A DNA stretch of 63,899 nucleotides, filler included, from Lenisia limosa (GCA_001655205.1; 8 parts of 8 records of this genome joined end to end with filler, not necessarily neighbours in it), one strand, 5' to 3'; positions 20,780 to 63,899 are shown, counted from the first letter of the whole stretch. Numbers and translations are program-made. The notes: a model not told the origin generated them from the letters alone.

Positions 20780-20879
20780 CTGGGAAGGGGGGGGGGGGAG
20801 TAAAATTGGAAAATTGATAAACAAAAAAATCCCAAAATCAACTCTGTTGGCTGACAACACACGAGAGTTGATAACTAAC
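20780..20879 (-). repeat. Repeat family C copy forming an intron 3' end (poly-C then AG)
   Basis: Sense strand: caactctcgtgtgttgtcagccaacagagttgattttggg...tcaattttccaattttactc-C-run-ttcccag|exon; homologous to 62892-62986 and 63240-63297. Confidence 0.8.
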
Positions 20880-20984
20880 AAAGCCCAAGCCAGTCGCTTC
20901 TGCAGCACCTCATCCCATCACTCCAACGTACGAAGAATGGATCACAAAATAATATACACCAAGCGTGAATTAATATTATCCTTA

Positions 20985-21070
20985 TGGCTTCACTTTGGTT
21001 CAAAAAAAGACTTAAATCCTCGAAAAGTATCGATATTTTGATGGTTTTTTTTCGAACCGAAGTGAAGCCC
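20985..21070. mobile_element. MITE family A copy, TA-flanked
   Basis: ta-tggcttcactttggttcaaaaaaa...ttttttcgaaccgaagtgaagccc-ta. Confidence 0.9.
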
Positions 21071-21167
21071 TAATGACACTATAATCCAATATCTCTTATA
21101 AGCGCGATGGTGTGGATGGCTTCGGCCAGACACAACTTTGTTTTTTTATTTCTCATTGCTATATACC

Positions 21168-21205
21168 CAAGGCGGTGGGGAGTGGGTGGTCGAGGTACCG
21201 CCTTG
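21168..21205. mobile_element. Miniature copy of the CAAGGCGGT inverted-repeat family
   Basis: caaggcggt...accgccttg, 38 bp; same termini and an internal gtcgagg shared with the 28798-29159 element. Confidence 0.55.
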
Positions 21206-21223
21206 AACACACCCCCCTCCTTA

Positions 21224-21320
21224 GGGCTTCACTTCGGTTCGAAAAAATGACTGAATTTCTCGATAAATCCTCGAAAACTATCAATATTACGCCGGTTTGT
21301 TTCGAACCGAAGTGAAGCCA
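21224..21320. mobile_element. MITE family A copy, TA-flanked
   Basis: ta-gggcttcacttcggttcgaaa...tttcgaaccgaagtgaagcca-ta. Confidence 0.9.
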
Positions 21321-21369
21321 TACCCCCAAGCCTCTCATTTGACGTTCTAAAAGGGAACACTCCCGTACT

Positions 21370-24300
21370 CACGGACCATTATAGGCCCTCGAACACGGTA
21401 CTTCGTCTCGAGTCCAAAATCTCCAGAGAACTGATTTTCTCTTACGCCTCGACTGCTTCTCGGCTCACTCAAATATCAGTTTTCTCTCGATTTTGGGCTC
21501 TACCTTATCCCCACCATTTCTTCCACCGAAAGGGCTCGCTGGCCTGGGGGTGGCGGAGAGGGGCTTGTACTCATTCTGGGGGTATTAATTCAACACTCGT
21601 TTTCTGCGCCAGAGGGGAGTAAAACGAAGGAAATTCTGATGAAGAATATTGGCGTAAAGGTACAAATCACGAACCGAATGATCTGAAACTCCAAACAACA
21701 ACAACAAAAAACAAAAAAAAAACAAAAACAAGCAAGAACAAACACGAGCAACCAACGCTGACAAAAGCCAGATGGCAAATGAGGGGGGTAAATTCTCAAA
21801 AATCACTCAATCAATATAATACAGTGACAAGGATATCCCCTGGGATATCCGTAGGAAATCGGTCAACTTATCCCGGTCAGTATCAGTATATATATATATA
21901 TTATATATTCCTCCAAAGCCCCAATCAAATACCTTGTCTATGTGGGGTAGTGGGGCTGAGGTAAGGTGTAAGGCAATTCTTGGAACGATAAGGAGAGAGG
22001 GGGTTGAAAGGATCTCTGTACCTCTGTCTGTATAAGCCTCTCACTCTGTGCTCGAATCTGCTGGTTATAGGGATTGAGACTCTACTCTGGCTTTTTTTTA
22101 CACTTGTTCGCTTTTTTTCTTCTTTCAATTTTTTTATTATGATTGAAAAGATTGAAGGTCACGGGGGGGGGGGGGNNNNNNNNNNNNNNNNNNNNNNNNN
22201 NNNNNNNNNNNNNNNNNNNNNNNNNNNNNNNNNNNNNNNNNNNNNNNNNNNNNNNNNNNNNNNNNNNNNNNNNNNNNNNNNNNNNNNNNNNNNNNNNNNN
22301 NNNNNNNNNNNNNNNNNNNNNNNNNNNNNNNNNNNNNNNNNNNNNNNNNNNNNNNNNNNNNNNNNNNNNNNNNNNNNNNNNNNNNNNNNNNNNNNNNNNN
22401 NNNNNNNNNNNNNNNNNNNNNNNNNNNNNNNNNNNNNNNNNNNNNNNNNAAGAAGAAAATAAACCGCTAGTGCTCGATAGGGAAGAACGTTTGGATAGGG
22501 AATCTAAAAGGTAAGAAAATTTCTGCTGTTGAAGAAAAAGAAAAGAAAAGAATAATAGGCACTTCTGAAGGCTCATTCGTAATTAAACTGATAATCCATA
22601 ACAAGACACGCCCAAATGGAATAACACAGGAAAATGAAAGCACAAGAAGCACCAGTATATATGTATATTAGCTGAAATCAACCAACCTAAGCAACTTGCC
22701 AGATTCGGGGTCAGTAGCCTGGGTGATGGCAATTTTCACCACCGGACCAAATAATCGGCCGTCTACCTCCACGTACATGCCGAGTTTTTGGTCATGAACG
22801 GCAACCTTTGTGGTAAACGTGGGCGGCATGGTAATTTGTTTATGGTATCCCTATGTATTTATTTGTTTCCCAAGATTTCTAATTTATTCAAAAAAAATGA
22901 AACACAGCATGCTCGCGTGGTGGAGCGAAGGAATTAATGTCGTTGATTGAATTGATTTTTANNNNNNNNNNNNNNNNNNNNNNNNNNNNNNNNNNNNNNN
23001 NNNNNNNNNNNNNNNNNNNNNNNNNNNNNNNNNNNNNNNNNNNNNNNNNNNNNNNNNNNNNNNNNNNNNNNNNNNNNNNNNNNNNNNNCAGAATATCGAT
23101 ATTTATCGAGCATTTATCAAGATACTCGGTCTTTTTTGGAACCTTAGGGAAGCCCTGTGGCGCGGCCGTGACGCATACCTCGATTTCAGTGCATGCGAAC
23201 CTTCTGGCGTTGTCCATCCTCCCGGCCTGGAGGCATGAAAATGGAAAATTTACGAAACAACAGCAACAACAAAAAACAAAACAATTCTATTGAGTATAAA
23301 TCAATTATTGATAAACAAGTGGGGTTCGGGGTATAACTCTCACCTTATATCTCTTTTTGTTATCAGCCTCGAAGAGCTGAACCTCAAGCTCTTCTCGGGA
23401 AGGGTGTGCTGAAGAATAGCCAAGCTGGGGGGGGGGGAGTAAAACGATGGAAATTTCAATGAAGAATATTGGCGTAACGGTACTAATCACGAACTGAATA
23501 ATCTGAAACTCCAAACAAACAAAAAAAAAAACAAGCAATAACAAACGCGAGCAAACGAAGCTTAAACTAGACAAAAACCAGATGACAAAAACACAAACAC
23601 AAAAACACGGGGTGTGTGGTGAATAATACTAATAGGCCATAAGGACAAGATTACTGAATTCGAATTCCCATTTTGGGAATCCCATAAATTTCTTCGGATT
23701 TTTATAAAGTTACATGGGATTCCTATGCGCGTAGTGTAAGGTAATGTGTAAGGGTAACCAAGCAACTCGCACACCATTTCCTCGGGGTTAGGGGTGTTGA
23801 TAATGGAGACGCCAAGTAGACTCTTTGCCTGAAAGATGACAAATGCAGGACAATTGCAATGTTGAAGAATATTTCAACACTGGTTTAATAAAACTAGACA
23901 AAAAAAAAGAAAAAAGAAAGGCACAAAGAGAGAGAGAGNNNNNNNNNNNNNNNNNNNNNNNNNNNNNNNNNNNNNNNNNNNNNNNNNNNNNNNNNNNNNN
24001 NNNNNNNNNNNNNNNNNNNNNNNNNNNNNNNNNNNNNNNNNNNNNNNNNNNNNNNNNNNNNNNNNNNNNNNNNNNNNNNNNNNNNNNNNNNNNNNNNNNN
24101 NNNNNNNNNNNNNNNNNNNNNNNNNNNNNNNNNNNNNNNNNNNNNNNNNNNNNNNNNNNNNNNNNNNNNNNACAATAATTTCTTTATCATAACATAGCAT
24201 CTCACCTGGATAACGGTTTTGATGGTTTTGTTCATCTTGCGGTTGACAAACTTGTACGTCACGGTCATAGTCTGAACAAGTGATGCTGGGTGGGAGGAAG

Positions 24301-25551
24301 GGGCAAAATGTTCTTGGTTCCAAAAGGAAATAACACCTCGTACCTGGGCGTCGTATTTGAAGTTTTTATGAGCAAGTACTTCCTGGAGGGACATGGTATC
24401 CGGCAGTTTCTTCTCTGTCCTGAACCAGGCGGCTACGGCAGCCACACCAACCTCCACGCGCTGCATGGTAGGCACCTACACATTGTGAGTGAAGGGTTTG
24501 AAAAGATGTGAGAAGCCAGGAAAAAGGAAGGAATTTTGCTGGAAGGAGCTGGTAAATGGCTGCATAACGGCAAATGGTATTCGTTACAAAATAGGGCATG
24601 AATGTGAAATCCTGTATCTTTAGCCCTTCGTACGCCTTTTGCAAGGAGAGTGGTTTTAAGTGGTGCTGTGTATTGATACCCCAAGATTCAATCCGATCTT
24701 TTCCTTGCACCCAAAAGAATCAACATACCGAGAAGTAGAGGGCAGATGAGCTGGTGGAGTTGACCGACCTAAAGTGGTGAGACTCGGTCCGGCCCCTCTT
24801 CTTTTTTTCAATTTGGAAAAAAAAAAAAAACTAGGTTGCCCCCCCGCCCCCTTCAGATTTCCCTCTAGAAAAACTGGTCAAGACTACCTATGCTCAGTTT
24901 GCATTATGTTTATTACGTAGATTGTACTAAAAGTGTTTTTGTGTTCTCAAAAAAGTTTTAATGCTCCCAAGCAGCCAACCTGGCGAGCCCCCAGCATTGG
25001 ACGTGATAGACCTGCATGTCGACTGTGTTTCGGGCCTGGGGAGGGGGGGTGACAATGGAAGATTGATGAAACAAAAAAACACAAGCACAACTCTGCCGTG
25101 AAAGGAAGATGAATGAAACATCGTTGACTCAGTTGGCTTAACTTGAAAACACAATGGTTTGAAAACTACAAAACAAAAGAAGACCAGCAGTAGCCTCTAC
25201 ACACCACCCCAAAACTCCAGCGCACAAATTAAAACAAAAAGAATACTTGACAAAAGGATAAAGTAAAAACAAATATAATAGCGTGTCAGCAAGTAATAGG
25301 CGCGGGTACAATGTGGCACATCGAACTGGGATTCCCATAAATTTCTTCAAATTTTCCTAAAATTCCATGGGATTCACATGTAAAATATGGGAATTCCAAC
25401 GTTTTCACAAGAATCCAAAGTCAATGCGCAGTAGTGTACAAGCCCAGATGGCTACCTGGTTAAGGAAGAGGGAAAGTTCGCGTTTGATCAAGGCCATAGG
25501 GTGAGGGTTGTGGAAGATGTCCTCCTTTGTTGAAGCCTTGTTGTCCCAATC
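21370..25551 (-). CDS. Multi-exon gene of unknown function, 5'-truncated at scaffold end
   Basis: In-phase GT-AG exons: DWDNKASTKEDIFHNPHPMALIKRELSLFLNQ; PTMQRVEVGVAAVAAWFRTEKKLP...KYDAQ|TMTVTYKFVNRKMNKTIKTVIQ|AKSLLGVSIINTPNPEEM|LGYSSAHPSREELEVQLFEADNKKRYK|AGRMDNARRFACTEIE|...VAVHDQKLGMYVEVDGRLFGPVVKIAITQ; no family recognised; 3' end uncertain. Confidence 0.7.
21618..21780 (-). repeat. Repeat family C long variant
   Basis: Close match to 23423-23600: tttggagtttcagat(c/t)attc(g/a)gttcgtgatt...tacgccaatattcttcat...aattt..cgttttactccc. Confidence 0.85.
23423..23600 (-). repeat. Repeat family C long variant ending at a splice acceptor
   Basis: Ends ...gaaatttccatcgttttactc-C-run-ag|cttggc (exon LGYSSAHP). 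Confidence 0.85.
23655..23725. repeat. Repeat family D (GGGATTCCCA palindromic repeat)
   Basis: gggaatcccataaatttcttc...catgggattc, shared with 25325-25400 and related to the 37750-37799 hairpin. Confidence 0.65.
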
Positions 25552-25849: not shown

Positions 25850-28800
25850 TCTTTAGAGCGTTGGGAGAGTTCTCCGCATTGACCATACGTGAGGGCGGAT
25901 TCATATCGTAGGAACGGGGGGAATCTGGGGGTCAGAGCAATCTTACACAATCCAATATAAACCAGAAGAACCGCCTTCAAAGGGTTTAATGAATTAAAGA
26001 GTCGAGGAGTTAACATGAGATAGGGTTAGACTGATGGAGGGAAGTAAAACCATGTTTGTTCTTCAAATGATGCACAGTTCTGCTGATCCAAACTAAATGT
26101 TGTACTTTAAAACAACGATCACCTATTCCATGAGATTCCCCGACCTACTTGAGAAAGAGGAAGGGGGTGATGGGGGCTCAGCTGCAAGTCTGGGCTTAGA
26201 TGGGACAATGGGGGAACCGTTCGGTCCTGGTATTGGTAAGAAGGGCAATTGGGTCATCATCTCATGAAACCCTGGTATTATTGACCTTTGCGCTGGTAGA
26301 TCGTCATGCAAGTTCAGCGTATGCTTTTAAGTTCAAGAGTATTGTGGAATATATTGTTGGAGTAGATAATAATACTTAGTAATTATATTTGGGATGAAAA
26401 AATCAATACATCCATCACCCACGGTGCTTCTGTATCAACGGTTCAGGCTGTTTGGGGGAATCTGCATCTAAATTGTCACAATCAACGATAAAGATCAAAT
26501 ATATAGTTCTTGTATCTCACAGGAAAACATCCATACCTCTTCCATTATCCCTCCCTTGATAGAAAAACAAACCAGACTTGCTAACCCCTGCACAAATAAT
26601 TGCCCACTCCTACCCCTTGCTGGACACTGGAGGGCGGGACTGTCGTTTCGCAGTTTACTTTGTGCTACTTGTACGTTCTCAATACTGGTAAAGCTGGGAG
26701 GCTCCGAGTCGAGAGAGAGAATGTCAAAATCATCGTCCTCTTGTGAGAGCTCTGCAAATAGTAAAAACAAACAGTGAATTCAGCTTGTAAAATATTCCCC
26801 TGAAAAAAAAAAAGCAGTATTTCACTCAACTATTCTTCATTAGCCTCGTCATTTATAAATATTACCCCTCACCATGCAGACCTCCAACAGGACTGAGTCG
26901 TTCTGAAACCACACCTCGTTGGCCTGGAATGCGAATGAAAAACTAGAGAACATCTGATATTTTCGCTGCCCCTGTTTTTTTTTTGTTTTGTTAATGAAGA
27001 GACAGGTAGCAAAATAAAGGAGGAGAATGCACAAATTTCTTGCAGTAAAGTGAAGCTATAAGTTGAACCTTTAACATCTATTTCTTCGGAGACTTCAGCT
27101 TCACAACAGAGATCTGCCCCTCACCCGCATTACTCGAAACGCTGCTTGAGTTCAGCCGGTTCAACGAGGGCATGGGTGACTCCGATAGGACCGAAATACT
27201 CTCCAGCGACACCATTGGTGAAACGTTCTGTCGGTGTTTCGACATGTCACACGGACTCATGGGCTAAGATGATAAAAACACAGGAGATTTTTCAGGATGA
27301 TAGCCTTCATTTCGACATACTATATTATGAGGTAAACGTGATTTGGACGTTTTTGATTCCGTAAAAATACAAAAAAAAATGATAATAATAAGCAGCATTA
27401 GTCAGAGACGGTACTTTTAATCAAGCTCACCAGCTCAGTATCATCATCGACAACAGTTTGACTAGACACCCTATTGAACGTGGGTGTTGGCAGCCCTTCA
27501 GGGTGAGTATTGAAAATACAAATGAATGCGGGGATAGTTGATTTCTTTATATGACTCAAGGAGAAATCATGTTGTTTATACTTTTCTTCATATTTACATC
27601 ACATTACAATGAATAAAATAACACCCCTGATCAGGGGCACCTACCATTGGAAGGGGGTTGAGGAGAGGCTGGTATCTGCAAAGGTCAGGGGCGGATGGTC
27701 AAAGTCAGACCCACATTTTACACACATTTTGTAGAATCAATCCGAATAATCCAACACGTTTGAGGACACTTACCCACAAACTAATAAATTCACCCAATCC
27801 ACAATCTGTCTGCGTATTTAATTATGTTATAATTATTCCATAGAAACGGATATGGTATACGATATATCGATGTACTATATTATAATAAGATATATCTGAT
27901 ATGTATGTACTACATTGTATATTCGATGAGGAGGAGGCGCGTAGCATTGTGATAAATGTCCAGGACCGAAACACCCTACCACTCCCACAGGGTTGGAGTG
28001 GTCATGTGAAGGAAGGTTGGAAGGTAAGGCGTCTAAACAGTAAGCATTTTATTCAAGACACTTAAGGGATATTCAAAATACCGCGGATTGCAGCATTAAA
28101 AGTCTGTATTGGAGTATTGCCTACCTTTTGTGCTGGAGAGAGCGACAGGTTTTTCGGAAGAACAATGGTCAAGAAAATCCTAAAACGTGAGAAGCTTGGT
28201 AATACACAAGATCTGTAGAGCCATCTTCTCCGTTTTTTTACCTCAGAAAGACCTACAATAATAGCGAATGTACTTGAATGAACATTCCAAAAACCCCTTC
28301 GATCCCGCCAACCATCCCATAGAGGTCAGAAATGTCAGTGATCTGCTGTGAACTGAGGTTTTTGACACTTTGAGGAGTGGCTAAAGTGTCAACCCATTGA
28401 GTGCCCATAAAAACAATATCTATTTTCAGAACAAATATTGACGTAGTTTTATCTTCAAATTACCAGGAATCTGTAAATATTGAACGAAAATGAAACAATA
28501 GACCGCAATAATATGGAACCTGTACGGAAAGATATCAAACACCAGAGTCACAGGGGGCGTACAGGGACTTGTTTGCGGTGTTGACCATTGTGAAGGTGTC
28601 GTCGGGGGTGTTACCGAGATCTGGTGAGGGAGTGGAGTATGAAACAGACAAACCCAAAAACAAGTGAGAGTAAAAGCGCGAAAATGGGACTACTATTCGT
28701 CAAATGAGAAAAGAGACATTCATTAAATAAATTAAAATCCTTGATTTTGGATGATGAAGAAAGATGATAGATCAACAATAAAGGAATATGTTTAAATCAA

Positions 28801-37675: not shown

Positions 37676-37749
37676 TATGATATGATGACATGTTGACTTA
37701 TGAGTTAATTATTAGAGCTCCTGGTTTTTATTATTCACACACTACAGCG

Positions 37750-40808: not shown

Positions 40809-40843
<35 letters not shown>

Positions 40844-47506: not shown

Positions 47507-48230
47507 CGGAGGTAAAGTCGGAGGCGTCGTTGATGAGAGTCTCCAAAAGCTCGACAAAAGGAGATGATCGGTCGCTGGGGAGGGGGTTAATGGGTATTAA
47601 TGAAAATAAAAAGAAATCCCTAAATCAACGATAGCATCACATACGTAATCAACGATGGGAATCCAAGCACAATTGCTGAGTCATTACAGGGGAACAACTC
47701 GTCAGCCACTGCAGCAGCGAAAACAGCTCTGAGTACGGAGTTGAGGTCCTCTTTTTTCCTTGATTGCGATGAATGCAGATCTAAGCAAATGAAGGTCTCT
47801 CATCAGAGTTAGCAGTAAAGTCTCTAATGAAACTTGAATCAAGAGAGAAAAAAAGCCAGTTACCCCCCCCCCCGAAAAAGCAACACCACCCCNNNNNNNN
47901 NNNNNNNNNNNNNNNNNNNNNNNNNNNNNNNNNNNNNNGGTGCTTGCTCGATTTTGCCGCCTGAGCCATAAGCGGCCAAAATCTCGTCAGCTTCAGATAA
48001 GAGGATTGACCAGCTAAGTAATTAAATTTTGGCTTGTTTGGTGTTTTGCCTCCCCCGCAATATACAGTGACCGAGATAAGCCTTGACTTATGCATCTCAT
48101 TTATTATGAAACAGAAAAGCAAAAGACTAAAAGGAGGAAATCGGCCAAGACTTATCCCGGTCACTGCACACACTGTATACCAACCTAATGGGCGTCCAAC
48201 TGGGATCAGGAAGTGATGGCACAATCTGTG
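47507..48230 (-). CDS. Gene fragment of unknown function (several exons)
   Basis: WSILLSEADEILAAYGSGGKIEQA; DLHSSQSRKKEDLNSVLRAVFAAAVADELFP; DRSSPFVELLETLINDASDFTS, each after a YAG acceptor. Confidence 0.45.
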
Positions 48231-48638: not shown

Positions 48639-49459
48639 AAATTGTCTCCATATATACATGTAAAGAAAAAATATGTCCTCATCCTCCCCCCCCCCCCAAN
48701 NNNNNNNNNNNNNNNNNNNNNNNNNNNNNNNNNNNNNNNNNNNNNNNNNNNNNNNNNNNNNNNNNNNNNNNNNNNNNNNNNNNNNNNNNNNNNNNNNNNN
48801 NNNNNNNNNNNNNNNNNNNNNNNNNNNNNNNNNNNNNNNNNNNNNNNNNNNNNNNNNNNTTCAACGTAAAACAAAGGAAAATGCGATGAAGAATATTAGC
48901 GTAATTACTTAGTAACAATGAAACATTTATGAAACAACAAACCCAGAATCGACTATGTTGGTGCATTTGGTAAACACACAAGGGGTGGAGAGTGAAATTG
49001 GGAGGGAGGTAAAAGAGTAAATTTTATGAAGCAAACACGAACAATGAACTCTGTTGGCCGGTTGAAAACAACAAACGAGGGTTGAAAACAACACAACAAA
49101 CAGAGTCCGTATTTTGATATAAAGAAAGTGAATTAAGAAATCCTTATTTATGTTAATGAGTATTATTAAGTTTAGAAAGTGAGAATTTTTGATGTAAAGA
49201 AAGTGAGTATTGTATGTAACGTTACAGAAATGACACGAAGAAATAGCTCCCGCTCACCTTCAGAATTTAGAATAACTCGGTTGCATGATCTTGTTTGTAC
49301 ATCTTTGGCAAAGAGAGAGGCGAGAAAGCACAAAATTTAAATAATAAAAGGGATTAGTTTTGATTAGGGTATTTTACTTTCATTTTCAACTTTTCATGCC
49401 TTTTCTCAGTTATTCCCACTCTATAGATATAATAACTATATAACTATCCAAAAAGAAGG

Positions 49460-50329: not shown

Positions 50330-50475
50330 GGTATGAGGGGGCGGGGGAGACACGCAGAGAGTTTTATATACAAAGGTTTTAGGTAAATGATTGGGTAAAT
50401 TAGTATTAGTATACTATCATTCAATATACCCTATAAGCGTGATGACGTGGACAGATTCGGCCAGATACCACTTGT
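50330..50475 (-). repeat. Repeat family B copy
   Basis: Reverse strand: gtatctggccgaatctgtccacgtcatcacgcttatag...tttacccaatcatttacct. Confidence 0.8.
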
Positions 50476-50848: not shown

Positions 50849-50932
50849 GGGCTTCCCTATGGTTCCAAAAAAGACCGAAATTCTGGAAAATAGCGAGATT
50901 GAAACGGTCTTTTCTGGACCGAAGGGAAGCCT
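50849..50932. mobile_element. MITE family A copy (GGCTTCCC variant)
   Basis: ggcttccctatggttccaaaaaagacc...ggtcttttctggaccgaagggaagcc. Confidence 0.85.
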
Positions 50933-51631
50933 TAGTGCCGGTACAATCATATTTCCCCCCGGGAAAATTGGCCAAGTCTTCTTACCGTCAGTGCAAATAA
51001 TTCACCCTCTCTTAGTTTTTCTCTTTGTTTTTTCTCTTTTTTTTTTTTGCTTTGTGCTTCATTTCGAATATTAAGGGCTTCTTCCCAACTAATCGTCGGA
51101 AAATGTTATTCAATAAAGTGAAACAGACGCAAAATATTTATACCACTACGTGGTCGTTTCTTTAACCCATCAGTCTTTTTATTTTTGAACAAGAACTGAT
51201 ATCATTCATACGTATACATTAAAAATCTTGGAAAAAACACGCATCCAGCTTCATTCAGCAATACATAGTTGCATTTCTCATCTCTTCTACCCCCCTCCCT
51301 TTTTTTTTTCAAATGCTCAGCCAATTGAGTTGATTTTGGGTTTTTGAAAACCTCCCCCAATTACCCCTTTCACACTTCAGGAACCGGAAACTCTCCCTGC
51401 TGTATTTCCACGTTCTGCTTGATCAAGTTGGAGGGGGAGGGTATATTGGATTGGGAGGAGGGGAGGAGGAGACCTATTGGATTGGGAGGTGTTTAAACAA
51501 AGCGCATTTTTTTTGATCCAGATACATAATTATATGAGAAAAACAAAAGAAGAATAGGGTGGCTTTTTTGGGGTTCTGAAAACAAAAACAAACAAATCTT
51601 TCAATTATCAAGGATAGTGAAGGGCAATAGG

Positions 51632-51827: not shown

Positions 51828-54119
51828 CTAATCTGGTGACCCTATACCAAACCCACCAATTGTGCCCGGAATTTTATAACGAGTCGTGTTTTTTGACTGG
51901 GCGGATTCCAAATCAAATGCCTTTTGGAGTGAAGAAAACGGACAGAATATGGGTATATTAAATGGGTATGTTGCAAAATGAGAAGAAGAGCAGGTGAAAA
52001 TAGTTAATTTATGTAAGCTCATAGTATGCAACTGGTCCAGATGAGTTTATACATACATCCAACGTTTCTTGATTTCATAATATATACAACGCAAATAATG
52101 ACTGTCTAAGAAGGGAAACAATGGGAAACAATGGATATTTTGAACTGTATGGGGCTTTTTGGGTTAAATATAACCTCAACAACTACGCATCATACCACAC
52201 CCAGATCCATGATCAAACCTTGACCTTGCACTTTTCATCATCAAACGTTAAACCAAGATTCATTGGCTGAAGATTGTTAGGCCAGCATCAACCTATTTTT
52301 TTGTTTTTGAAAAACACTAATATTTAAACAGGGTCCCTCAGCACTACCTTGATATCTCCGTGGAACAGTTTCGCATTGTGGNNNNNNNNNNNNNNNNNNN
52401 NNNNNNNNNNNNNNNNNNNNNNNNNNNNNNNNNNNNNNNNNNNNNNNNNNNNNNNNNNNNNNNNNNNNNNNNNNNNNNNNNNNNNNNNNNNNNNNNNNNN
52501 NNNNNNNNNNNNNNNNNNNNNNNNNNNNNNNNNNNNNNNNNNNNNNNNNNNNNNNTGATGACTTTATCCAAGACTTTCTCAAGCAAGCCTACCATAATAG
52601 GGATAGGTGTGGATCCAAGAACCAAGGCATATTGTTCAATAGCGATTGCGTTGATATTTTCTCCGTTGATTCTATAAAAAGTGACACAATAGGGACAAAG
52701 GAGAAGAAAATTGAAATATCTATGGTACACACATATCATATACTATGCAGTAAATATTATATTTTCATGAGATATATCGAACATATGATATAATATGTAG
52801 CTATGTATAGTATACTGGAAAAGAGGCTGAACAATTTAAACTAAAGCTTCACTTTCGGTTCAGGGAACGATTTTCAGACAGAGACCGGAACCAGATGTTT
52901 GACAATCGTTTGTTAGTTTGTTTTTGGTAATAAAATCGTACTCTATTCTGTTCGTATTTCCTGAGAGATTATTATTCACTACGCTAATACTTATACACCC
53001 CATGGGGACAATTTTAAAAGAAAATGCCAACTATCCGAGTGACATTATTTAGGAAAAAGAAGACAAAAGAAGAAAAAAAAGACCCATCTCGGGATCAAAC
53101 CCAAATTCCGGTTCTTAAAAAAACCGGAATCGTATTGTCAGAATTTGGGAACTGGAACCGTGAAGAACCGGAAATGAAGCTTTAATTTAAACAGAGACAA
53201 ATCACTGCAAAACCACAAACTGTATATTGCCATAGAAATCGGGGATAGTACTGACAGCCGCATACTTGACATAGGCCAACTGTTCAGATCCAGGCTGCAT
53301 TTTCTGGAAGGTGAAGATTACAAAACAGGGCATTGGGATAACATACGAAGATTTGGTTCAACAAAGAGGCAATAGTCCAAACCTTGACAATCACCCTGAT
53401 CGGCTATGTCTCGTCAGAAAGATGCGCAGGACCAACATATTTGAAAGCGTTTTTTACCAATTCAGCTTCAGCTAAGGAGGTGAAATACAGAGCTCACTGG
53501 GTCAAAAAAATCGGCACATTATCAATATTTTAATGGGGACCATATTACGCTATCAGAAGTAAGCAAAAATACGGCTGAAATGATATGGGGGGGGGGGGGG
53601 GNNNNNNNNNNNNNNNNNNNNNNNNNNNNNNNNNNNNNNNNNNNNNNNNNNNNNNNNNNNNNNNNNNNNNNNNNNNNNNNNNNNNNNNNNNNNNNNNNNN
53701 NNNNNNNNNNNNNNNNNNNNNNNNNNNNNNNNNNNNNNNNNNNNNNNNNNNNNNNNNNNNNNNNNNNNNNNNNNNNNNNNNNNNNNNCACACTGGAGGTA
53801 AAAATAGCAATTATAAAGAAAATGAAAAAAGTATTGAGTATGAATTATGCTATAATGAGTCACTATTCCCCTTCCTGGCAACTTTCCATGGCGCTAAAAT
53901 GCCCTTACTACAATAGCTCACCTTATCAGGAAGAGCGATGCCTCCATAATAAAGATGTGCATATTTGTTGTAAACGTCTTTAGCACTAGCTGTCTTCTCC
54001 ACCTCCTGAAGCTTAAACTTTTCATTGGAGTTCTTCTTCTCAAAGGAAACCGTTGTGTCAAACGCCGTTTTGCCGTCGAATACATTGATGTAGTTTACAT
54101 TGATCTTGTTTCCCTGCAA
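51828..54119 (-). CDS. Protein kinase (fragment, multi-exon)
   Basis: Splicing across aag|gtag...cag|cca gives HNAKLFHGDIKPMNLGLTFDDEKCKVK (catalytic loop), followed by the exon AFDLESAQSKNTTRYKIPGT (subdomains VII-VIII position); upstream exon GNKINVNYINVFDGKTAF...GGIALPDK. Confidence 0.7.
52844..53182. mobile_element. Long family-A-related MITE (339 bp), TA-flanked, intronic
   Basis: ta-aagcttcactttcggttc ... gaaccggaaatgaagctt-ta. Confidence 0.8.
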
Positions 54120-54339: not shown

Positions 54340-56256
54340 TGGTAGGACTGAGGCTGGGGGTAGTTCTGCGCATAAGGCTGAGGCTGCTGAGGCTGGGAAT
54401 AGGGCTGAGCGGCGTAGCCTTGAGGGGGAGGGACTTGTTGCTATGGCAGGTCAGAGGGAATCGTTGGGCTACCATTTTCATCCTTCTTATTCCCATTTCC
54501 ATCATCCTTCTTATCCCCATTTCCATCAACCTTACTTCTTATCCCCATTTCAAGACTGCCTTGCTAATCCCCATTTCAGCCCCGGCCAACCTGGGGGTAG
54601 CCACCCTGTTGCTGTCCGGGAGGGGGAGGGGCGAAGGTGTGGTTGTTGGGTGCTTGGTGCAGCGTGCGAGAGTCCTAGGGGGGGGGGGNNNNNNNNNNNN
54701 NNNNNNNNNNNNNNNNNNNNNNNNNNNNNNNNNNNNNNNNNNNNNNNNNNNNNNNNNNNNNNNNNNNNNNNNNNNNNNNNNNNNNNNNNNAAGTAAAAAA
54801 TAAGGTTGTACTCTGGCCGAAGATGAGAAACAATAATAATAATTACTCGATAAATCCTTGAATATATCGAACATTGTGAATTCCCAGTGGTAACAAAACG
54901 ATGAAGTAACGCAAAGAATAATATTACACATAAAAAATATTGAGGAAAACACAATCTTTCAACAAAAGATGCCATCTCACCAAGGATCCGAGAAGCCCGC
55001 TTGAGAAACCGCTTCCAGGGATGTGTGAGCCTTCCGCAATACGGGCGTCAACTTCCTAATATGGTAACTATTGTCCATCCAACAGACACACGTATCAACA
55101 TCGGAAATATTTTTATTGCGAGATATGAAATGGAAAGACTCTGTCAATACAAAGCTGTTCACAGCATCAGATAGTGGTATATATGATATATTATGTGTCT
55201 CTGGTAAGAGTTATTGATTATAGTATCATGAACTCACCCAATCATTTGCCTTCAAACTCCCAACACAGTTTTCTCCGTGTCATAGCAGCATAGCTATTCT
55301 GCATTTTCCCACTGAGTAAAACGCACCCTCAAATCACTATAGAACTAACACGCTATATATCTATTGGACAACTACATCAATATTGCCAATCTTGGACGAA
55401 GTTCAGCATTGATAATCCTCGTGTCACCCACCATGGCCACTTGGCAAGTTGCACAGGGATTGCAACAGACGTTGACGAGAACCTCGTTCAACTCGTCAAC
55501 GGGCGCAATGCCTAGTGGGTGGCGTAAAAACATGTCTAATATTGATATTATTTGAATGTTAAACAACAAAAAATGCACACATCCAAACAGAAAAAGAGAG
55601 AATATAACGATTAGCCGCCCCAGTTTAACCGAAAAGGCATTGACGAGCTTTTTCCACGACAAAAAGTTAATGCATCGTTAGTATCTACATAACTTTACCA
55701 CATATCGTCTAGGATGCAGAAAACGCCTTTTTTAAAACAAACTACCATCCAAGGAGATCAAGCCAACAAAAGCTGAGTTTCCTCAGAAAAACGTGGGGAC
55801 ATCCGGCAAACCAAATTGCAGCCTCGAGTCCTTTCTGTAGACCATTGACAAAATACAGCAAAGCCCAAAGTAGGAGGCGCAAGTTCTAAAAGAGTGAGCC
55901 CTCACACCCAACCATTTTCGTTCAGCCATTTTCTGGAAAGCCAGACTCACTGTACAAGGGAAACGGCGACGCAATTTGTGCCGTCAAGCTTCTCCTTTGT
56001 CATACCGAGAAGACAGGGTGTGCAGAAGGTTCCAAGAATGCAAGTCTAACAAAATAAAAAGAACATTCAATTCAGTTCCACTCGCCCTACAGATACATGT
56101 TTCCTCAATGTATAAATTACAACCATTAAGTCCTCTAAAGCCGACCTGAGGGTCTTCAAAGCAGTCAAAGATGTCATAGCGGAAATCTAAGGGGTTTGGT
56201 GGAATCGTGAATGAAGAAACAGCAGTGGTTTGTCCAACTACTTGTGGATAGGACAT
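54340..56256 (-). CDS. PLAC8-family Cys-rich protein with Pro/Gln-rich C-terminal extension (3'-truncated)
   Basis: MSYPQ...FRYDIFDCFEDPQ|ICILGTFCTPCLLGMTKEKLDGTNC, TCASYFGLCCILSMVYRKDSRLQF|GIAPVDELNEVLVNVCCNPCATCQVAM match PLAC8 motifs (l.dCf.D, CxPC, CCxxCaxCQ); later exons PPPGQQQGGYPQ and QQVPPPQGYAAQPYSQPQQPQPY. Confidence 0.88.
54474..54580. repeat. Intronic minisatellite, about five degenerate 21-25-nt units
   Basis: Repeats of catccttcttat(t/c)cccatttc. Confidence 0.8.
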
Positions 56257-56538
56257 AGTGAAAGTAAAAGAAGAGCTGTCTTTAAAATTTAAATAAATGA
56301 ATCCGTATTTATTTGAACTGTTTGTTTTACTGTAAACTAACGAGGGGAATTAATTATTTGACAAATTTTCAAATTTGTGTAAAACTCTTTTCAACCAGTT
56401 TAATGTCCCTGGGGGGTTTATATCTTTAAAAGAATCTCCTTCGCGCCTAGTCTAAGTTTGTTGGTCACTCGTGCCGAGATAGCCTCTGGTTGGTCCAGAA
56501 GGTCTTTAAAAACACTTTAACCCTCTGTTAACCCTTTT

Positions 56539-56612
56539 CAACATGCTTTATAATGTATGCCGTTTATGAGGGTCGTCAACATGCTTTATAATGTATGCTG
56601 TTATGAGGGTCG
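56539..56612. repeat. 38-bp tandem duplication (intergenic)
   Basis: caacatgctttataatgtatgc(c/t)gtt(t)atgagggtcg, two copies. Confidence 0.9.
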
Positions 56613-56715
56613 GGGCATGGGATATGATAACGACTCAAAAAGACCAATCAGATATAAATCTAAGTATTATGTCAATAACACCACTTCCAACAGGCCACTT
56701 GTTTCTAAAAATACA

Positions 56716-58908
56716 TTACTCTTGCTCAGGAACCATTTTGCTGTCGTCTTCCCTGCATAAGTTAGAATGATAAAATCTTTGGTTCAAATACATGTATATT
56801 TGTAGTAAAGTCTATCAACAAAGGAAGCGGTGAAATATCCAATAAAAAACCGAATTCGGTACTGATGCTGGGATGAATATTACTTGGATGATGATTTCTG
56901 TATTGAATCCGGTCATAACCGCGAATTCAACTAGTAAATCCGTCCCTCCGCACCTCTTGCACTGCCTTTTCAAGGCTTGCACTTCACTCTCCAGCGCTGC
57001 GTTGGCCTTGGCCACTGAGTAGTTCCTTCGGATGGTCTCCACGAACTCGTCGTTCAACGTGGATAGCACCTGTCCAGCGGCAAGCTGCGAGGGGGGGGGG
57101 TGATATAAATTGGAAGCTTAGAAAACAAAAAGGACAATTTCTATGAAGATATTGGCAAAAAGGTTTATCACGAACTGAATAATCGGGGGGAGGGGGGTTA
57201 AAATGGAAATGTATGAGAACTCCAAAGCCAACTCTGCTCACAAAACAAAAAAAAACGCATCATCACTCGGGGTAAAAATTGAAAAAAGTTTCGGCTNNNN
57301 NNNNNNNNNNNNNNNNNNNNNNNNNNNNNNNNNNNNNNNNNNNNNNNNNNNNNNNNNNNNNNNNNNNNNNNNNNNNNNNNNNNNNNNNNNNNNNNNNNNN
57401 NNNNNNNNNNNNNCTTTTGGTAATAAAAGCGTCAATACACAATCCTATCATATCAATATCTTACAAAAACAATATGACGAGAAAAATCGTAACCAAAGAG
57501 TTGGAAAGAATCAACTAAATCTTGGTATGTTGTAGAAAAGCATGCAAAATAGTATCTGAGGGTAAGTGTCCAAAACAACCGCCACAAACCTGGTCGGATT
57601 TACGTTTTCTGTTAATATTTTCGACTTCTCCATCGAGGTTGATCTGGGCATCCTCAGCGCTGTGGGAGTGAAATACTACTTTAGAGGAGGAAACACAAAA
57701 TCGATATGCAGGACCTCAAAATAGCTCAAAAATATTGTGGGTAGTGTGAGCAAAAAAACTCAAACGCATGAGGGGTTTGTAACAGTAAAAGAAATAAACA
57801 TAAGCCAGCCTGGGAGAAGATAGATGGAACCAATGATGAATGGTTCACTAGCTTTAAAAAAAAAATCAATTTGAAATGCCCAATTTTCTGGGGCAAGAAT
57901 ATAATCATTTAGTGCTTATCATCAAAACAATTACCCAGCAAACGCGATAGTTGTCTTTTCCAATCGCTTATTGTACTCAAGCCAGGCCTGGGATGAGAAT
58001 CGTTGGCTCAACTCAATGTTCATTCCCCTGAAGAGTCAAATGCTGTAATAGATCTATTAGTCCATTTATCTTTCAGAAGTGCTCATATTTTATTGAACTC
58101 TAGTAACGAATAAGATAGAGACTATGCATATCAGCGAAGGTTTATAGATTGAAGCAACATGGTATCCAAGGTTTGAGGGCCCTATCATCATCTCACCCTC
58201 CCAGGAGTGGAATTGGAACTCTATTTCAAGAATAATGCAATATTCACAATACAAAGTACCTCTTGGAATCACCCTCAACCTACCAAGCTTCATGCGCCTG
58301 AAGCTGACTGTAGGCGTGGCCTATTGATTTCTGCCAGGCAGCAGGGTCTGTGGGGTCGCTGAAGGGTGAAAGAAATAAAACACAAGCAACAAATCTCACA
58401 AGAACACAGTATAAACAAATCAGTATCTTGATAGAAGAACAAAAATGATAGAAATATCAGGAGAAATCGCATTTTAGATGTTAGGTAGAACATTTCCAAA
58501 GATAATTAGAGCTGTCATGTCACTTACTTGGGAACGGAAGTGGAGGGAAATTTGATCTTGGGCATGGGTTCGTTGGCTTTGTGGCGCTCCATCTCGGCAA
58601 GAAGGAGTGGTGATGTCTAGGTATGTTAATGGTGCCACCTAGAAGAGCAAGGAGGGGCTCAGGCAAACCAAAAGGGACTTGGGAGCGGGGAACTTTTCTG
58701 AGATATCTGGAAGGGGCATTGGATTCATTCTCATTTCCTACTTGAGTGAGCAAAAATACCCTAAGAAGCTCCGTACACTACCTCTTCAATAAGGCTATCA
58801 ACCTTCTGCTTGAGCTTCCCCGAATATTCATTGTCTAAAATGTTAACAATGCATAGAAACCTTTGGAAACGAACCAATATACGGCAGAGAAGTCAAAACC
58901 GTGGTCAT
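56716..58908 (-). CDS. BCAS2: Pre-mRNA splicing factor SPF27/BCAS2 (Prp19/NTC complex)
   Basis: Hand-spliced: MTTVLTSLPYI|DNEYSGKLKQKVDSLIEE|EMRMNP...|TSPLLLAEMERHKANEPMPKI...|DPTDPAAWQKSIGHAYSQLQAHEAW|GMNIELSQRFSSQAWLEYNKRLE...|...EVENINRKRKSDQ|LAAGQVLSTLNDEFVETIRRNYSVAKANAALESEVQALKRQ; motif order matches BCAS2; last exon tentative. Confidence 0.9.
57085..57296 (-). repeat. Two tandem family C units in an SPF27 intron, each ending in a C-run
   Basis: ...gcagagttggctttggagtt...atttccattttaa-C-rich, then gattattcagttcgtgat...gccaatatcttcatagaaatt...ccaatttatatca-C-run-tcgcag|exon. Confidence 0.7.
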
Positions 58909-59131
58909 TGTGAAAAGTCTGTTTCTGAAAAAACCTAAACTCTATGGGGTAACTTAATCAATAGGCTACTAACAGAACAACATAAAAAGAGGGACCCTTT
59001 TCTCACAAAATTGTCCTGAATGACTAATGTATAAACCCCCGTGACTTTTACCATATTGTCCTTCCAAAAATATTTTCAGCCCCTTTCCAGTGTTTGATTA
59101 AGGATAAAGTGCATCTTTAAGCTCACCAAGC
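58909..59131. promoter_or_regulatory. Putative bidirectional promoter between SPF27 and CLF1
   Basis: Only 223 nt, free of Ns and recognisable repeats, separate the two divergent ATGs (58908 minus, 59132 plus). Confidence 0.65.
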
Positions 59132-61852
59132 ATGAATATTCCCGACCACAACGCCCGTGACTCCGGTCATAGAGGTACTCAGCACACTAAAACCAATATC
59201 GTGAGGTTTACAGCAAGTATTAGGTATTATTAACGATATTAGGTCCAAAACAGAGCACCCTCGAATGTTCAAATTACAGCAGAGCAGATTCTCAGAGAAT
59301 CTAGAGGTTACCAGGATGTTCAGTCTTCAACTCCTCGTTCCAAGGTTACAGATGGTGATGAACTCAAGGAATTCCGGTGAGGAGAGATGGTCGCAACTTT
59401 TGTCTTCCTTTGACACTCTCTTATGCCTTCCACAGTACCCAAAAGCGTACTGAATTCGAAGAACGTCTTCGCAGAGATCGTATGAAGATCAAAGAATGGT
59501 TGAGAGTAGGTCCCTCTTTCCTTTTGTATTAACTGTTGCAGTATGGCAAATTTGAAGCTGATCAAGGAGACTATGAAAGAGCCCGCTCTGTGTACAACCG
59601 TGCTCTTGACCTTCACCCCCGTGTTGNNNNNNNNNNNNNNNNNNNNNNNNNNNNNNNNNNNNNNNNNNNNNNNNNNNNNNNNNNNNNNNNNNNNNNNNNN
59701 NNNNNNNNNNNNNNNNNNNNNNNNNNNNNNNNNNNNNNNNAGAACTCAATTCATTACGCGATCAAGGGGAAATGCGGCATCCGTATCTTCTCCAACCCTC
59801 ACCATCCAGACCATCTGGCAAGCCTACGCTGAATTTGAAGAGAGTGCGCGAATGATTAACCATGCTCGTAACGTTTGGGATCGCGCCGTCACGCTTCTAC
59901 CCCGTGAAGACAGATTATGGTACGGACGACTGATATTATAACAATAGGTGTGCATAGCTACATTCTGAATTCCATTACTTTCCTTTGTGTATTTAATTTT
60001 CCAATTTTACCCCCCCCCCCCCCNNNNNNNNNNNNNNNNNNNNNNNNNNNNNNNNNNNNNNNNNNNNNNNNNNNNNNNNNNNNNNNNNNNNNNNNNNNNN
60101 NCAGCCCGCCAACTCTTTGAGAGATGGATGGCTTTCGGCCCGGCCAAAACGTCATGGCATTCGTAGGAGGGGTGGCTTATTATGTTGGGGAGTACATTAT
60201 TAATTATTATACCATTTAAGCGTGAGGGGGTGGGTACGTACGAGAAAGCCAATCTTGATATAATGGAAAATTGATCTGAAGTCCTTTCGGAAGAGTGGGG
60301 TGGGTGGTGGAGTGTTTTTTTTGAAAAAAAAAAGTAAGATATGCAAAACTATTTACAGCTGACATATTGAAATCTACATTTCGTCTCTGACATTCAGGTA
60401 CATTAACTTCGAAATCAAACTGAAAGAGTGGGACCTTGTCAGAGGCATTTACAAAAGATGTAAGCAATAAAGGGATAACATTGACGTTTTTTTTTCTTAT
60501 AAGTATGATAGTGTGGACAGCTTTAGCCTGGCTGCCATGTCATTTCAACTTATTATTATGTCAAATTCCGACAAACTCCACAATGACCTTCAGACATTGA
60601 ATGCCACCCTTGTGTTGAAAGCTACCTGAAGTTTGCTAAGTTCGAAGACGGACGAAACGAAGTTGCCAGAGTAGGCTGGGGGTGCAAGGTTTTTGTAAGA
60701 AAGCTGCGGGCTAGACGGTTATTTGAAGGGCTGTTTACGAATTAATTTATTGTGGGAGCTCAAGATTGTGAATAATGGAGAACGAAGGGTTATGGCGAAA
60801 AATCATTTTGGTGTTTCTAACAATACATAGGTTCTCTTTTTATGTGTAGTGAAAAAGGCTTTTCTTCCGTTATTAAGTGACGTATTGCTACTGATTGAAG
60901 CACTGTCCACATTGACCATTGCAGGCAAGGAAAGTGTACATGGACTGCAGTATTGAGCTTGGAGAGGCTGCCGAGACAGAGGACTACTTCACCACCTTCG
61001 CCCGTTTTGAGGAGAAGCACCATGAGGTAAGATCCGGCTTTTTGCACGTATTATTGCGGATGTCTTGCAATCAAATTACACAGTTCACACCTTTTCTGCT
61101 TATATAGCCTTATTCTTTAGTTCGACCGTGCACGTGGCATCTACACTTATGGCCTCGACCATATCCCTAAGCACCAGGTATGTGTAATGATATACATATT
61201 CCACCACCTCCCCCTCAATTCGGTAGAATCTTTTTAGTATTGTTTTTATGATTTTTTTATTTAAATAATTCTTTAACTATTTTCCTTAATCCACCCCCCC
61301 CCCCCCNNNNNNNNNNNNNNNNNNNNNNNNNNNNNNNNNNNNNNNNNNNNNNNNNNNNNNNNNNNNNNNNNNGGTGACGGGTCCGGCATCGACACTGTCA
61401 TTGCCCATAAGAAGCGGTTCCAGTACCAGGAGGTGAGTGAGAGATTCACTGGCGGAGTTTGGATTTGGATTTTCCTCATGTTTTCCTCCTTTCGCTAAAA
61501 CTGAATTCGTTTGGGGCAGCATACATACCTAATACATGTATATACTAACACAATTTGCATCTCTCCTTTACCAAATCAGGAAGTCCGGGCGGACCCTCAC
61601 AACTACGACGCCTGGTTTGAGTACCTCAGGCTGGAGATGTCCGAAGGCGATGTGCCCAGGATTAGAAGCGTGGGGGGGGGGTGGATGTGTGGATTGTTAT
61701 TTCTTTCATTTTGTGCACTTTTCTCTCACTGCCCGTTGACTTTCCCCCTTATACTTTGCTCAGGTTTTCGAGGACGCTGTCTCGAACATCCCCCTTATTG
61801 AGGAGAAGAACTACTGGAGGCGCTATATCTACATTTGGATCTTTTATGCCAT
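59132..61852 (+). CDS. CRNKL1: Crooked neck-like protein / CLF1 (HAT-repeat NTC splicing factor), 3'-truncated
   Basis: [115 protein letters not shown] are hallmark crn/Clf1 sequences. Confidence 0.97.
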
Positions 61853-62004
61853 GTGGGTCTTTAAGGATTGAGCGTTTTTTTTTACATTAAATAGAACCGA
61901 ATCGGCCAGATACTGCCATCTTGTTTTTTCTCTCATTTCCTCCTTTAACAAACATTTATGCAGGGGCTATTGTCCTTATTCATGAATCTAATTCTTGTAG
62001 GTAT

Positions 62005-62060
62005 GCTGGGGAGGCACACAGAAAGCTGTGTGCACAGAGTTGTAAGGCAAATGATTGGGT
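62005..62060 (-). repeat. Repeat family B 3' half with perfect hairpin
   Basis: acccaatcatttgccttacaactctgt-gcacacag-cttt-ctgtgtgc-ctccccag (8-bp stem, 4-nt loop). Confidence 0.85.
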
Positions 62061-62160
62061 NNNNNNNNNNNNNNNNNNNNNNNNNNNNNNNNNNNNNNNN
62101 NNNNTTAATTAATTAANNNNNNNNNNNNNNNNNNNNNNNNNNNNNNNNNNNNNNNNNNNN
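62061..62160. other. Artificial scaffold linker
   Basis: N44-TTAATTAATTAA (62105-62116)-N44. Confidence 0.98.
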
Positions 62161-62341
62161 GTGATTGTGGAGTTTTTTTAGGGGTTGATGATGGGAGGGG
62201 TTTCATTTTATTACATACTCTATAGTATAGATGATATAGATAAGATAAGATGACGTATTCTTCTTGTTGATTTTTGATTTAGATAAAGTGTATGTTGTAT
62301 GATTTCATTTTTTTTTTATTATTATTATTATTTCCTTTTTA

Positions 62342-63899
62342 GGAAGGTCATTTCAGTCAAGCTCGCGCCCAATTTCAGCAACAAAACCCCAAAAAAGGGT
62401 AGTCCGACCAATTTCCGGTGAGATTTTGAGATTTGTATAGCTAACTAATTAAGTAACAGGAAGGTCCAAATAAAACTTACTACTATAACAGATACAACCT
62501 TATTTTTTATTTCCCATTGCTATATTATATAACAGGAAAATCTAGTTACTATACAGGAAAGTCACGCCCTGTATCAGCTAGTCGAGTCTCTCAGAAGGGT
62601 GGACTGCAGGTTGGTGGTTCTTTGAAGATAATAGAGTAAAGAAAATACATGGGGGCACGAAACAGTAAATTTTTTGGGAACCTTGTAATTGTGTATTCTG
62701 ACTGCCTTTATTCTGTTGTGATTAGAACCTTTTTACAACTATCCTTTATCAAATTGCTTCTTTCATCCCCCCCCCCNNNNNNNNNNNNNNNNNNNNNNNN
62801 NNNNNNNNNNNNNNNNNNNNNNNNNNNNNNNNNNNNNNNNNNNNNNNNNNNNNNNNNNNNNNNNNNNNNNNNNNNNNNNNNNNNNNNNNNNTCTTTGTTG
62901 TTTGCAACCCTTGTGTGATGTGACAACAGAGTTTATTTTGGGGTTTTAATTTTTTCATAATTTTTCAAATTGTACTCATCTCCCCTCAGGTACTTGGTGC
63001 AGATAATATGAAGACATTTGACCGTCCCATGCAATCCGAGCAAACTTCCATAGTAAAGAAGCAGGACCGTCCTTCTCAATCCGAGAAAACTTCCTCAGTA
63101 AAGACGCCGACTATGTGGGCAAGAGTACCTTACCCCCCAACGATGTTGATTTTGGGTGTTTTTTTCTTATTTTTTTTTATTTTTTTTCAGATGTTGCTTT
63201 TATTTTTATTTTTTTTTCTCCAGCATTCACCCTCTCTGGGCTTTGTGTATTGTCAGCCAACAGAGTTGATTTGGGTTTTTGTTTCATATATTTTCCANNN
63301 NNNNNNNNNNNNNNNNNNNNNNNNNNNNNNNNNNNNNNNNNNNNNNNNNNNNNNNNNNNNNNNNNNNNNNNNNNNNNNNNNNNNNNNNNNNNNNNNNNNN
63401 NNNNNNNNNNNNNNNNNNNNNNTCTCCCCCAAGAACCCCAAAGGTTGCTTTGTTTTTAACCCTTGTGTGTTTCCCAAATAATACTAGCCAACATAGTTGC
63501 TTCTGGGTTTGTTTGCTTGAGATATTGATTAAATGACTGAAGCCGTCCAAGTACATTATATGGCATATTATGGGTTATTGTATCTAGCCGAACCCGTCCA
63601 TCATGTTTGCTCCCTACTGTGCAAAGAACGTTATTTTAGGTTCCAAAATACATGAATTATCGATATTTATCAAGGATTTATCTAGAATTTAGTCTTTTTG
63701 GAACCGAAAGTGAAGCTCAAATTCTTATTCTAATAAGGTTTTGCCCATATCACGTTGATATTTGGATACAATTACGTTCCAGTGACTCCTATAGTAACCC
63801 AGTGGAGGGTTCTTCGGTATCCGAGGAAATGGACGAGGAAGAAGACCTTTCTGAGGTGGTTGACACCTTGGACGTTTTCAAAGACTGGTCTCAACGTAT
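62342..63899 (+). CDS. Gene fragment of unknown function, low-complexity exons
   Basis: EGHFSQARAQFQQQNPKKG; GKSSYYTGKSRPVSASRVSQKGGLQ|VLGADNMKTFDRPMQSEQTSIVKKQDRPSQSEKTSSVK; SEEMDEEEDLSEVVDTLDVFKDWSQR. Confidence 0.5.
62892..62986 (+). repeat. Repeat family C copy forming an intron 3' end
   Basis: caacccttgtgtgatgtgacaacagagtttattttgggg...cataatttttcaaattgtactcatctcccctcag|exon; colinear with 20780-20879 on another scaffold. Confidence 0.8.
63637..63717. mobile_element. MITE family A copy (left arm eroded)
   Basis: ggttccaaaa...gtctttttggaaccgaaagtgaagct. Confidence 0.7.

Follow-up and report, generated by a model that had tools for sequence, protein, structure and literature searches.

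The window analysed here, 63,899 nt of DNA from Lenisia limosa (GCA_001655205.1), is made up of eight small scaffolds of eukaryotic DNA with spacers between them; a further 30 gaps lie inside the scaffolds. It encodes an EF-hand protein, SPF27/BCAS2, CLF1/CRNKL1, a PLAC8-like protein and, on scaffold 2, a protein with no significant homolog (the query being one exon frame) and no Pfam match. By eye, the end of this last protein resembles a diacylglycerol-kinase accessory domain, a candidate identity only. Introns of the EF-hand, SPF27, CLF1 and scaffold-2 genes carry copies of one short repeat. Several long introns of these unrelated genes have it as their terminal ~150-210 bases, 21-52% of the intron, and our data support the conclusion that it supplies the 3′ splice signal of its host introns.

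Besides this one window, the evidence comprises a DNA run and a polyA RNA run from a single study, both used as contigs. Thirty-six introns are supported: 15 by RNA joints, ten by the organism's own protein P0037 and 11 on scaffold 2. P0037 is letter-for-letter identical to the CLF1 exons and was used as the organism's own spliced product. Splice sites on scaffold 2 were taken from the ends of RNA pieces and from reconstruction; the table of joints is dominated by joints between DNA repeats. Five of the nine exons in one scaffold-2 gene, and one exon in another gene, are reconstructed.

About 20 units of the repeat, in two subtypes (type 1 and type 2) with a common tail, were recovered by self-comparison and profiles. 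Their boundaries were picked from local alignments, some being adjusted by hand. The units are distributed as follows.

20780..20932, minus strand: longest type-1 unit, at the 3′ end of EF-hand intron 20780-21514; RNA piece ends at 20779, profile match, DNA depth 237,703-383,887 at 20863-20888.
21604..21780, minus strand: type-2 unit in the proposed 5′ untranslated region (UTR) intron 21576-21932; 90% identical to 23438-23600 over 143 nt.
23425..23607, minus strand: type-2 unit with a C-rich tract before it, ending scaffold-2 gene intron 23425-23774; RNA piece ends at 23424, exon chain check.
25036..25228, minus strand: head-bearing type-1 unit and 5′-truncated type-1 unit at the 3′ end of intron 25036-25455; acceptor placed by RNA record length and open frame.
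57085..57296, minus strand: three stacked tails (near 57270, 57190 and 57095) of truncated type-1 and type-2 units in the 3′ half of SPF27 intron 57085-57589; RNA joint 57084>57590.
59984..60023, plus strand: match to the tail alone, at the end of the CLF1 intron from 59920, acceptor ~27 nt into a gap; z 9.1, P0037 and DNA record lengths.
23227..23318, minus strand: decayed and weakly matching, at the end of intron 23227-23343; profile E 0.08.
48860..49112, minus strand: two type-1 units and a 3′ portion of a type-2 unit in an array that continues into a gap, host predicted; profile and core matches.
62708..62776, plus strand: decayed type-2 unit with a C10 end at a gap; profile E 0.011.
62892..62989, plus strand: type-1 unit ending at a predicted acceptor (62989) of the scaffold-8 gene; 83% identical to the 20780 copy over 82 nt.
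63130..63297, plus strand: two 5′-truncated type-1 units, a C-tract before each; 94% identical to the 20780 copy over 52 nt.
63424..63530, plus strand: type-1 unit without C-run tail, not at an acceptor; profile match and self-comparison.
51286..51380, plus strand: 5′-truncated type-1 unit after a C-tract, ending near a predicted acceptor, host predicted; core match.
7215..7270, plus strand: short type-1 fragment after a C-tract; exact core match, profile E 0.088.
47575..47629, minus strand: weak match to the tail, up to a predicted acceptor; profile E 0.054.
28620..28663, minus strand: weak match to the tail, up to a predicted acceptor; profile E 0.03.

Five clear and two weak cases fall among the 36 supported introns, in four genes. 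The clear cases are introns 20780-21514, 21576-21932, 23425-23774, 25036-25455 and 57085-57589; the weak ones are the CLF1 intron from 59920 and intron 23227-23343. There are at least 15 RNA joints, all GT-AG on the host strand among those listed, and SPF27 intron 57085-57589 (~431 nt after gap closure) is one of them. In the EF-hand and scaffold-2 genes, RNA pieces end at 20779 and 23424, immediately at the repeat's AG. The acceptor is 0-5 nt past the repeat's C-run in four of the five clear cases, three placed directly by RNA and one by record length and frame. The original prediction that copies run up to a used AG holds for the EF-hand, scaffold-2 and SPF27 genes, and the view that the family supplies the 3′ splice signal is supported. 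Some copies stop elsewhere: the tail-less unit at 63424-63530 is not at an acceptor, and in the 5′ UTR intron the copy's own AG (21604) appears to be skipped for acceptor 21576, 28 nt further, which has its own branch-like motif at -10.

The nine-exon chain of the scaffold-2 gene totals 692 nt, equal to the span of the RNA record, and is open in one frame; the 61-nt exon proposed at 21515-21575 agrees with RNA record length, bin depth and open frame. The EF-hand intron spans 20780-21514 (735 nt) and follows a reconstructed upstream exon. A 100-nt intron at this place (20780-20879) is ruled out by RNA record length and frame; the acceptor is used, and the repeat extends to ~20932. Similarly, the SPF27 copies were correctly located, with the correct acceptor, but comprise three stacked tails and not two tandem units. 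The CLF1 intron does have ~40 nt of tail in common with the family, as a tail-only match whose acceptor is in a gap. All copies first listed were found again, although that list had missed the clear case at 25036-25228.

All seven repeat-bearing supported introns have the repeat in the sense orientation (p 0.016), on both strands, as had been claimed. Seven more loci are sense to predicted genes; these were left out of the count because gene prediction leans on the same acceptor motifs. The introns with a clear copy are 350-735 nt long, compared with a median of 147 nt for 26 repeat-free introns (p 0.0004; three gapped introns left out), as expected from added sequence.

The copies are homologous at or near the places where they were first noticed, with 77-94% identity over 41-143 nt. 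When intron 3′ ends were compared in 136 pairs with homopolymers collapsed, nine pairs scored above every one of 200 dinucleotide shuffles; in eight of the nine, both ends bear the repeat. Z scores of 13-33 were obtained against such shuffles. The first core of the repeat has nine matches where 1.7 are expected, the second has three where 0.02 are expected, and the reversed window gives no profile match at E≤0.1. Summed DNA contig depth is 237,703 at 20863, 383,887 at 20888, 224,823 at 21645 and 85,647 at 23458. The unique flanks have a depth of 17-38, which puts the repeat ~2,600-11,500-fold above them, or roughly 7,000 times single-copy depth, an approximate measure and not a copy number. 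The density of one unit per 3 kb in the window is consistent with this depth, and the repeat is likely present in thousands of copies. Its core has no exact match among metagenome contigs or viral contigs. A 174-nt RNA contig of depth 4 at 21596-21767 matches an unspliced copy and may be pre-mRNA, a retained intron or library DNA.

The longest type-1 unit (20780-20932) consists of a ~50-nt head, a body, a putative branch-point motif, C12 and the acceptor AG. The 5′ starts differ between units, and the 3′ tail (branch-point motif and C-run) is common. Units are stacked tail to head, with three tails in the SPF27 intron and three units at 48860-49112. Other genomic copies, seen as joints of 80% likeness in one or a few contigs each, have a head common to both subtypes; they join the tail to head or body at varied points (20930>20794, 20932>21622, 20909>25054, 20875>23427) and include type-1/type-2 hybrids (23447>20845, 21667>20827). 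No match to Rfam reaches the gathering score anywhere in the window, and within 20700-22000 and 23089-25551 no tRNA, 5S, 7SL or snRNA family matches even at E≤10. A short internal inverted repeat is visible in three copies; seven type-1 bodies yield no consensus structure, and only one of the seven copies folds better than shuffles. Junction repeats at splice boundaries are 1-5 nt long and consist of splice consensus, one junction being in a gap. C-runs also occur apart from the family: six of the 33 C or G runs of ≥7 nt in the window are repeat tails. Ten of the 30 gaps inside scaffolds adjoin a G or C run of ≥10 nt, so these small scaffolds are probably enriched for such runs.

What does the tail contribute to the acceptor? 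Of 27 repeat-free introns, 23 contain a T-N-A-Y motif whose A lies 8-11 nt upstream of the end of the intron (background elsewhere in introns 16%; two repeat-free introns with gapped ends are left out), and in 19 of the 23 this A is 9-10 nt from the end. On sequence grounds, the motif is most likely the branch point. A branch-like A so near the intron end leaves no room for a long pyrimidine tract. The tail of the repeat is T-N-A-C followed by the C-run, and in four repeat-ended introns its A is at -15, -16, -17 or -22, shifted by the C-run. Given the fixed branch-like A of ordinary introns, the tail is likely a branch-point cassette, with the C-run as an expanded spacer. Hence, the C-run that was first described as an unusual substitute for a U-rich tract is real, but is better read as a spacer behind a branch motif than as an odd pyrimidine tract. 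The AG after it may belong to the repeat or to the host, since the letters between C-run and AG vary among copies. Acceptors that lack the repeat can have a C-run too (54678, 61294). On the presumed sense strand, G-runs of 10-15 nt (48686-48699, 61670-61681, 53587-53601) mirror these acceptor C-runs, and that at 61670 is directly behind a supported donor. A survey of 50 species describes a fixed distance from branch point to AG as a feature of intron-poor lineages (PMC2483917). The nearly fixed distance of the branch motif here occurs in intron-rich genes (introns in 20450-25455 and 54441-61763).

It was also proposed that the family created introns. The repeat has introner-like traits: there are many similar copies in introns of unrelated genes, and these are co-linear with transcription and adjoin acceptors that are used. 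However, to pass the published introner pipeline, an element must show similarity to within 10 intronic bases of each intron end, partial matches being assigned to secondary insertions (PMC9860276), and introners are described as whole-intron elements in PMC12130899 and PMC11282704 also. Here, 152-582 nt separate the donor from the start of the repeat in all five clear cases, only one of 120 pairs of intron 5′ ends is similar (by way of a different repeat), and the window contains no copy that spans an entire intron. With unrelated 5′ ends and only part of the intron covered, similarity does not extend to both ends, and the repeat is not a whole-intron introner by the published definition. It is likely that the repeat inserted into pre-existing introns rather than creating introns. 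A head beginning with a conserved donor GT was considered and dropped, as joints from other copies lack the GT.

Outgroups were compared for CLF1, which is intron-rich in this organism (12 introns within the first 360 residues). Spliced alignment of 80 outgroup CLF1 loci over residues 10-400 revealed 0-2 introns per locus (31 with none, 48 with one, one with two), none of them at the tail-bearing position or at any other intron position of this gene. Because these intron-poor loci share none of the gene's positions, absence at the tail-bearing position is uninformative on the age of the intron. The organism is on a long, unplaced branch of the CLF1 tree, and a scan of viral contigs found no CLF1 relative.

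The window contains further repeats, which we call families B to E. Two of them are found at these positions:

Family B, ~140-nt intronic repeat: 18731-18835, 20039-20173, 21074-21156, 45982-46110, 50344-50488, 55199-55281, 62009-62060 and shorter pieces.
Family C, palindromic repeat of ~100 nt resembling a miniature inverted-repeat transposable element, with 26-39-nt inverted arms: 19203-19290, 19494-19574, 20973-21082, 21218-21322, 23089-23154, 47169-47240, 48573-48637, 50848-50948, 63639-63716.

Family B has a depth of 180,627 at 21105, and nine of its 12 matches are sense to their hosts, which are partly predicted. Family C has a depth of 321,841 at 21248; microRNA models that hit it in Rfam by e-value were below threshold. 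Family D, which is partly palindromic (23656-23741, 25327-25439, 37739-37795; depth 5,800-10,900), is near the donor end of two introns of one gene, both of which end in the repeat studied here. Family E (22810-22889 and 46466-46549, minus strand) is unrelated to that repeat. It has a depth of 28,161 at 22872 (~850-fold), is in the sense orientation, ends at or near the acceptor and provides the branch-like motif of intron 22806-23178.

Among the host genes, those for the PLAC8-like protein and SPF27 are in tandem on the minus strand (55987-58960). CLF1 starts ~140 nt from SPF27 on the opposite strand (an RNA piece ends at 58960 and another starts at 59098), and these two NineTeen-complex splicing genes are head to head. 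Elsewhere, decayed fragments of a Ty3/gypsy-type retrotransposon on the minus strand (3717-4070 and 9929-10520) have reverse transcriptase-RNase H and integrase domains, and there is a 131-nt tandem duplication at 4187-4448.

How did the repeat come to occupy the 3′ ends of introns? We propose, with a probability of about 0.5, that it is a high-copy non-autonomous mobile repeat, probably retroposed, that inserts at or just behind the host branch point and C-tract and takes over the 3′ splice signal. The element would be copied as RNA, its C-tail would pair with the G-strand of a genomic C-tract, and insertion would occur by target-primed reverse transcription with an enzyme from an unseen partner. 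The C-run would grow by slippage, the element's own tail motif would replace the predicted branch point and C-tract of the host, and selection would retain insertions after which the former exon start still has a functional acceptor. C-tract-primed insertion would account for sense orientation, acceptor proximity and stacking in one step. CCCC is present ≤25 nt upstream of the 5′ start in nine of 20 units, compared with 2.5% of 3,231 overlapping intron-interior windows. The check for terminal repeats and target duplications that had been suggested for the family revealed no terminal inverted repeats on the units, and one 12-bp near-direct repeat, consisting of branch motif and C-tract, that flanks copy 21604-21780 (21612-21623, 21781-21792). 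Variable 5′ truncation and a common 3′ end in a simple repeat are traits of short interspersed elements (SINEs), although the C-run could be host-derived or slippage-grown. More tentatively, the repeat may be a “half-introner”: an element that would home to spliceosomal branch points via C-tail priming, bring a replacement branch point, be spliced out harmlessly, and have rewritten about a tenth of the genome's intron 3′ splice signals while re-inserting into its own copies.

Several points weigh against insertion at branch-point/C-tracts. Upstream CCCC is lacking at 11 of the 20 units, and these include both long head-bearing copies, which a strict target duplication should flank too. In at least two of the nine units with CCCC, that tract belongs to the tail of the unit before it, and the unit boundaries behind this count are partly hand-set. 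No target duplication is evident beyond the C-tract, no Rfam family matches the head, and the 36 open frames scanned include no partner long interspersed element, only Ty3/gypsy-type fragments. The sense bias of the unrelated family B is not significantly different (12/12 versus 9/12, p 0.22), and the unrelated family E is also at an acceptor; these like tendencies indicate that selection alone can yield the pattern. Finally, the branch-point role of the tail is a prediction, the introns are presumed to be older than the repeat, and the sample comprises a single window of small scaffolds with many gaps.

The main rival to C-tract-primed insertion is an ordinary non-autonomous transposon that inserts at random, with selection purging antisense copies and acceptor-distant sense copies since the repeat carries a branch point and AG. 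We consider this unlikely but far from negligible. The tendencies of families B and E are in its favour, as are the copies found off the acceptor (63424-63530, and that at 21604, 28 nt short) and the lack of an upstream C-tract at both head-bearing copies. It leaves unexplained the repeated tail-to-head stacking at varied 5′ points and the excess of C-tracts (9/20 versus 2.5%), and it would need vast purging, given a thousands-fold depth and no clear antisense copy in supported genes. An old introner that made these introns, with 5′ halves that have since diverged or been overwritten by other repeats, is improbable. Such an element would be sense-only, present in many genes at very high copy and equipped with branch motif and AG, as observed; both long copies begin near GT, families B, C and D occupy 5′ parts of introns, and introner-like elements are said to run co-linear with transcription and to degenerate quickly (PMC3443670). 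Yet the 3′ parts are still 77-94% identical while the donor ends share only GT, whole-intron copies are absent from the window, and joints from other genomic copies keep no G before the head. The lack of an intron at the tail-bearing position in all 80 outgroup CLF1 loci would fit an introner, but these intron-poor loci share no other position either, and their lack of it says nothing.

Two further explanations dispense with a mobile element. Breaks or stalled replication at C/G runs might be repaired from the 3′ ends of other introns, by ectopic conversion or template switching, and thus spread a 3′ cassette. Type-1/type-2 hybrids among other genomic copies, junctions that are often at short C-rich matches, and the failure to find terminal repeats, an RNA polymerase III head or a partner are all consistent with such repair, but the thousands-fold depth of two subtypes with a common head points to amplification from few masters, and 29 of the 36 introns have the same branch motif but have not acquired the cassette; we regard this explanation as quite improbable. 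It is hardly credible that the similarity reflects only T/C-rich low complexity and the general 3′ splice consensus, an outcome that the original prediction had named as fatal to it. The CLF1 and 23227 matches are short, and ordinary introns also have a branch motif and C-tract; this may hold for weak tail-only matches. For the five clear cases it is refuted by the shuffle scores, by cores far above chance, by the silence of the reversed window and by the very high DNA depth.

Should the pattern seen in this window extend across the genome, a single recent repeat family would be the source of thousands of constitutive 3′ splice signals in this eukaryote. Splice sites would then turn over, and introns lengthen, along a path that published introner screens remove from view (PMC9860276). 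Random insertion shaped by selection alone would make the family a striking yet ordinary example of transposon survival. Our literature search, which covered few subscription papers and none of the supplementary family tables of introner papers, where this organism may appear, found no description of a repeat family that supplies intron 3′ ends. The family may be a previously undescribed form of transposon-supplied splice sites.

The introners of Micromonas, Aureococcus and dothideomycete fungi (PMC9860276, PMC12130899, PMC11282704) are likewise multi-copy, non-coding, co-linear with the unrelated genes that host them, and carry a 3′ splice site. In contrast, they make up the whole intron, whereas the similarity here stops 152-582 nt from the donor, without terminal inverted repeats and with tandem stacking. 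Secondary transposon insertions in introns are alike in that the repeat covers part of the intron and can provide 3′ splice signals. An antisense Alu, for example, can be the source of both pyrimidine tract and AG. As a rule, secondary insertions are spread along introns and now and then give rise to a new exon; the copies described here cluster in the sense orientation at the constitutive acceptor, and supply the acceptor in about one-seventh of supported introns. Helitron-type ends have a conserved 3′ hairpin followed by CTRR, unlike the C-run and YAG, with no conserved hairpin, that end the present units.

The closest analogy is the SIRE repeat of Trypanosoma cruzi, which would insert in pyrimidine tracts and provide a new trans-splicing acceptor; the SIRE papers searched did not confirm this behaviour. 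SIRE derives from VIPER (PMC6681497) and has 2,233 copies in one strain (PMC12618653). Like the repeat studied here, it is a short, non-autonomous, retroelement-derived protist repeat, with about 2,000 copies, but it concerns trans-splicing and intergenic DNA. Here, the setting is cis-spliced introns, the tail is a branch motif and C-run, and there is no known parent. Target-specific non-LTR (long terminal repeat) elements and SINEs include the microsatellite-targeting Togen and HERO and the U2-targeting Utopia and Keno, and are sometimes in tandem (PMC4640811). Although no autonomous partner or clear target duplication is seen here, such elements are similar to the present family in having a fixed 3′ end at a simple-sequence target, 5′ truncation and occasional tandem insertion.

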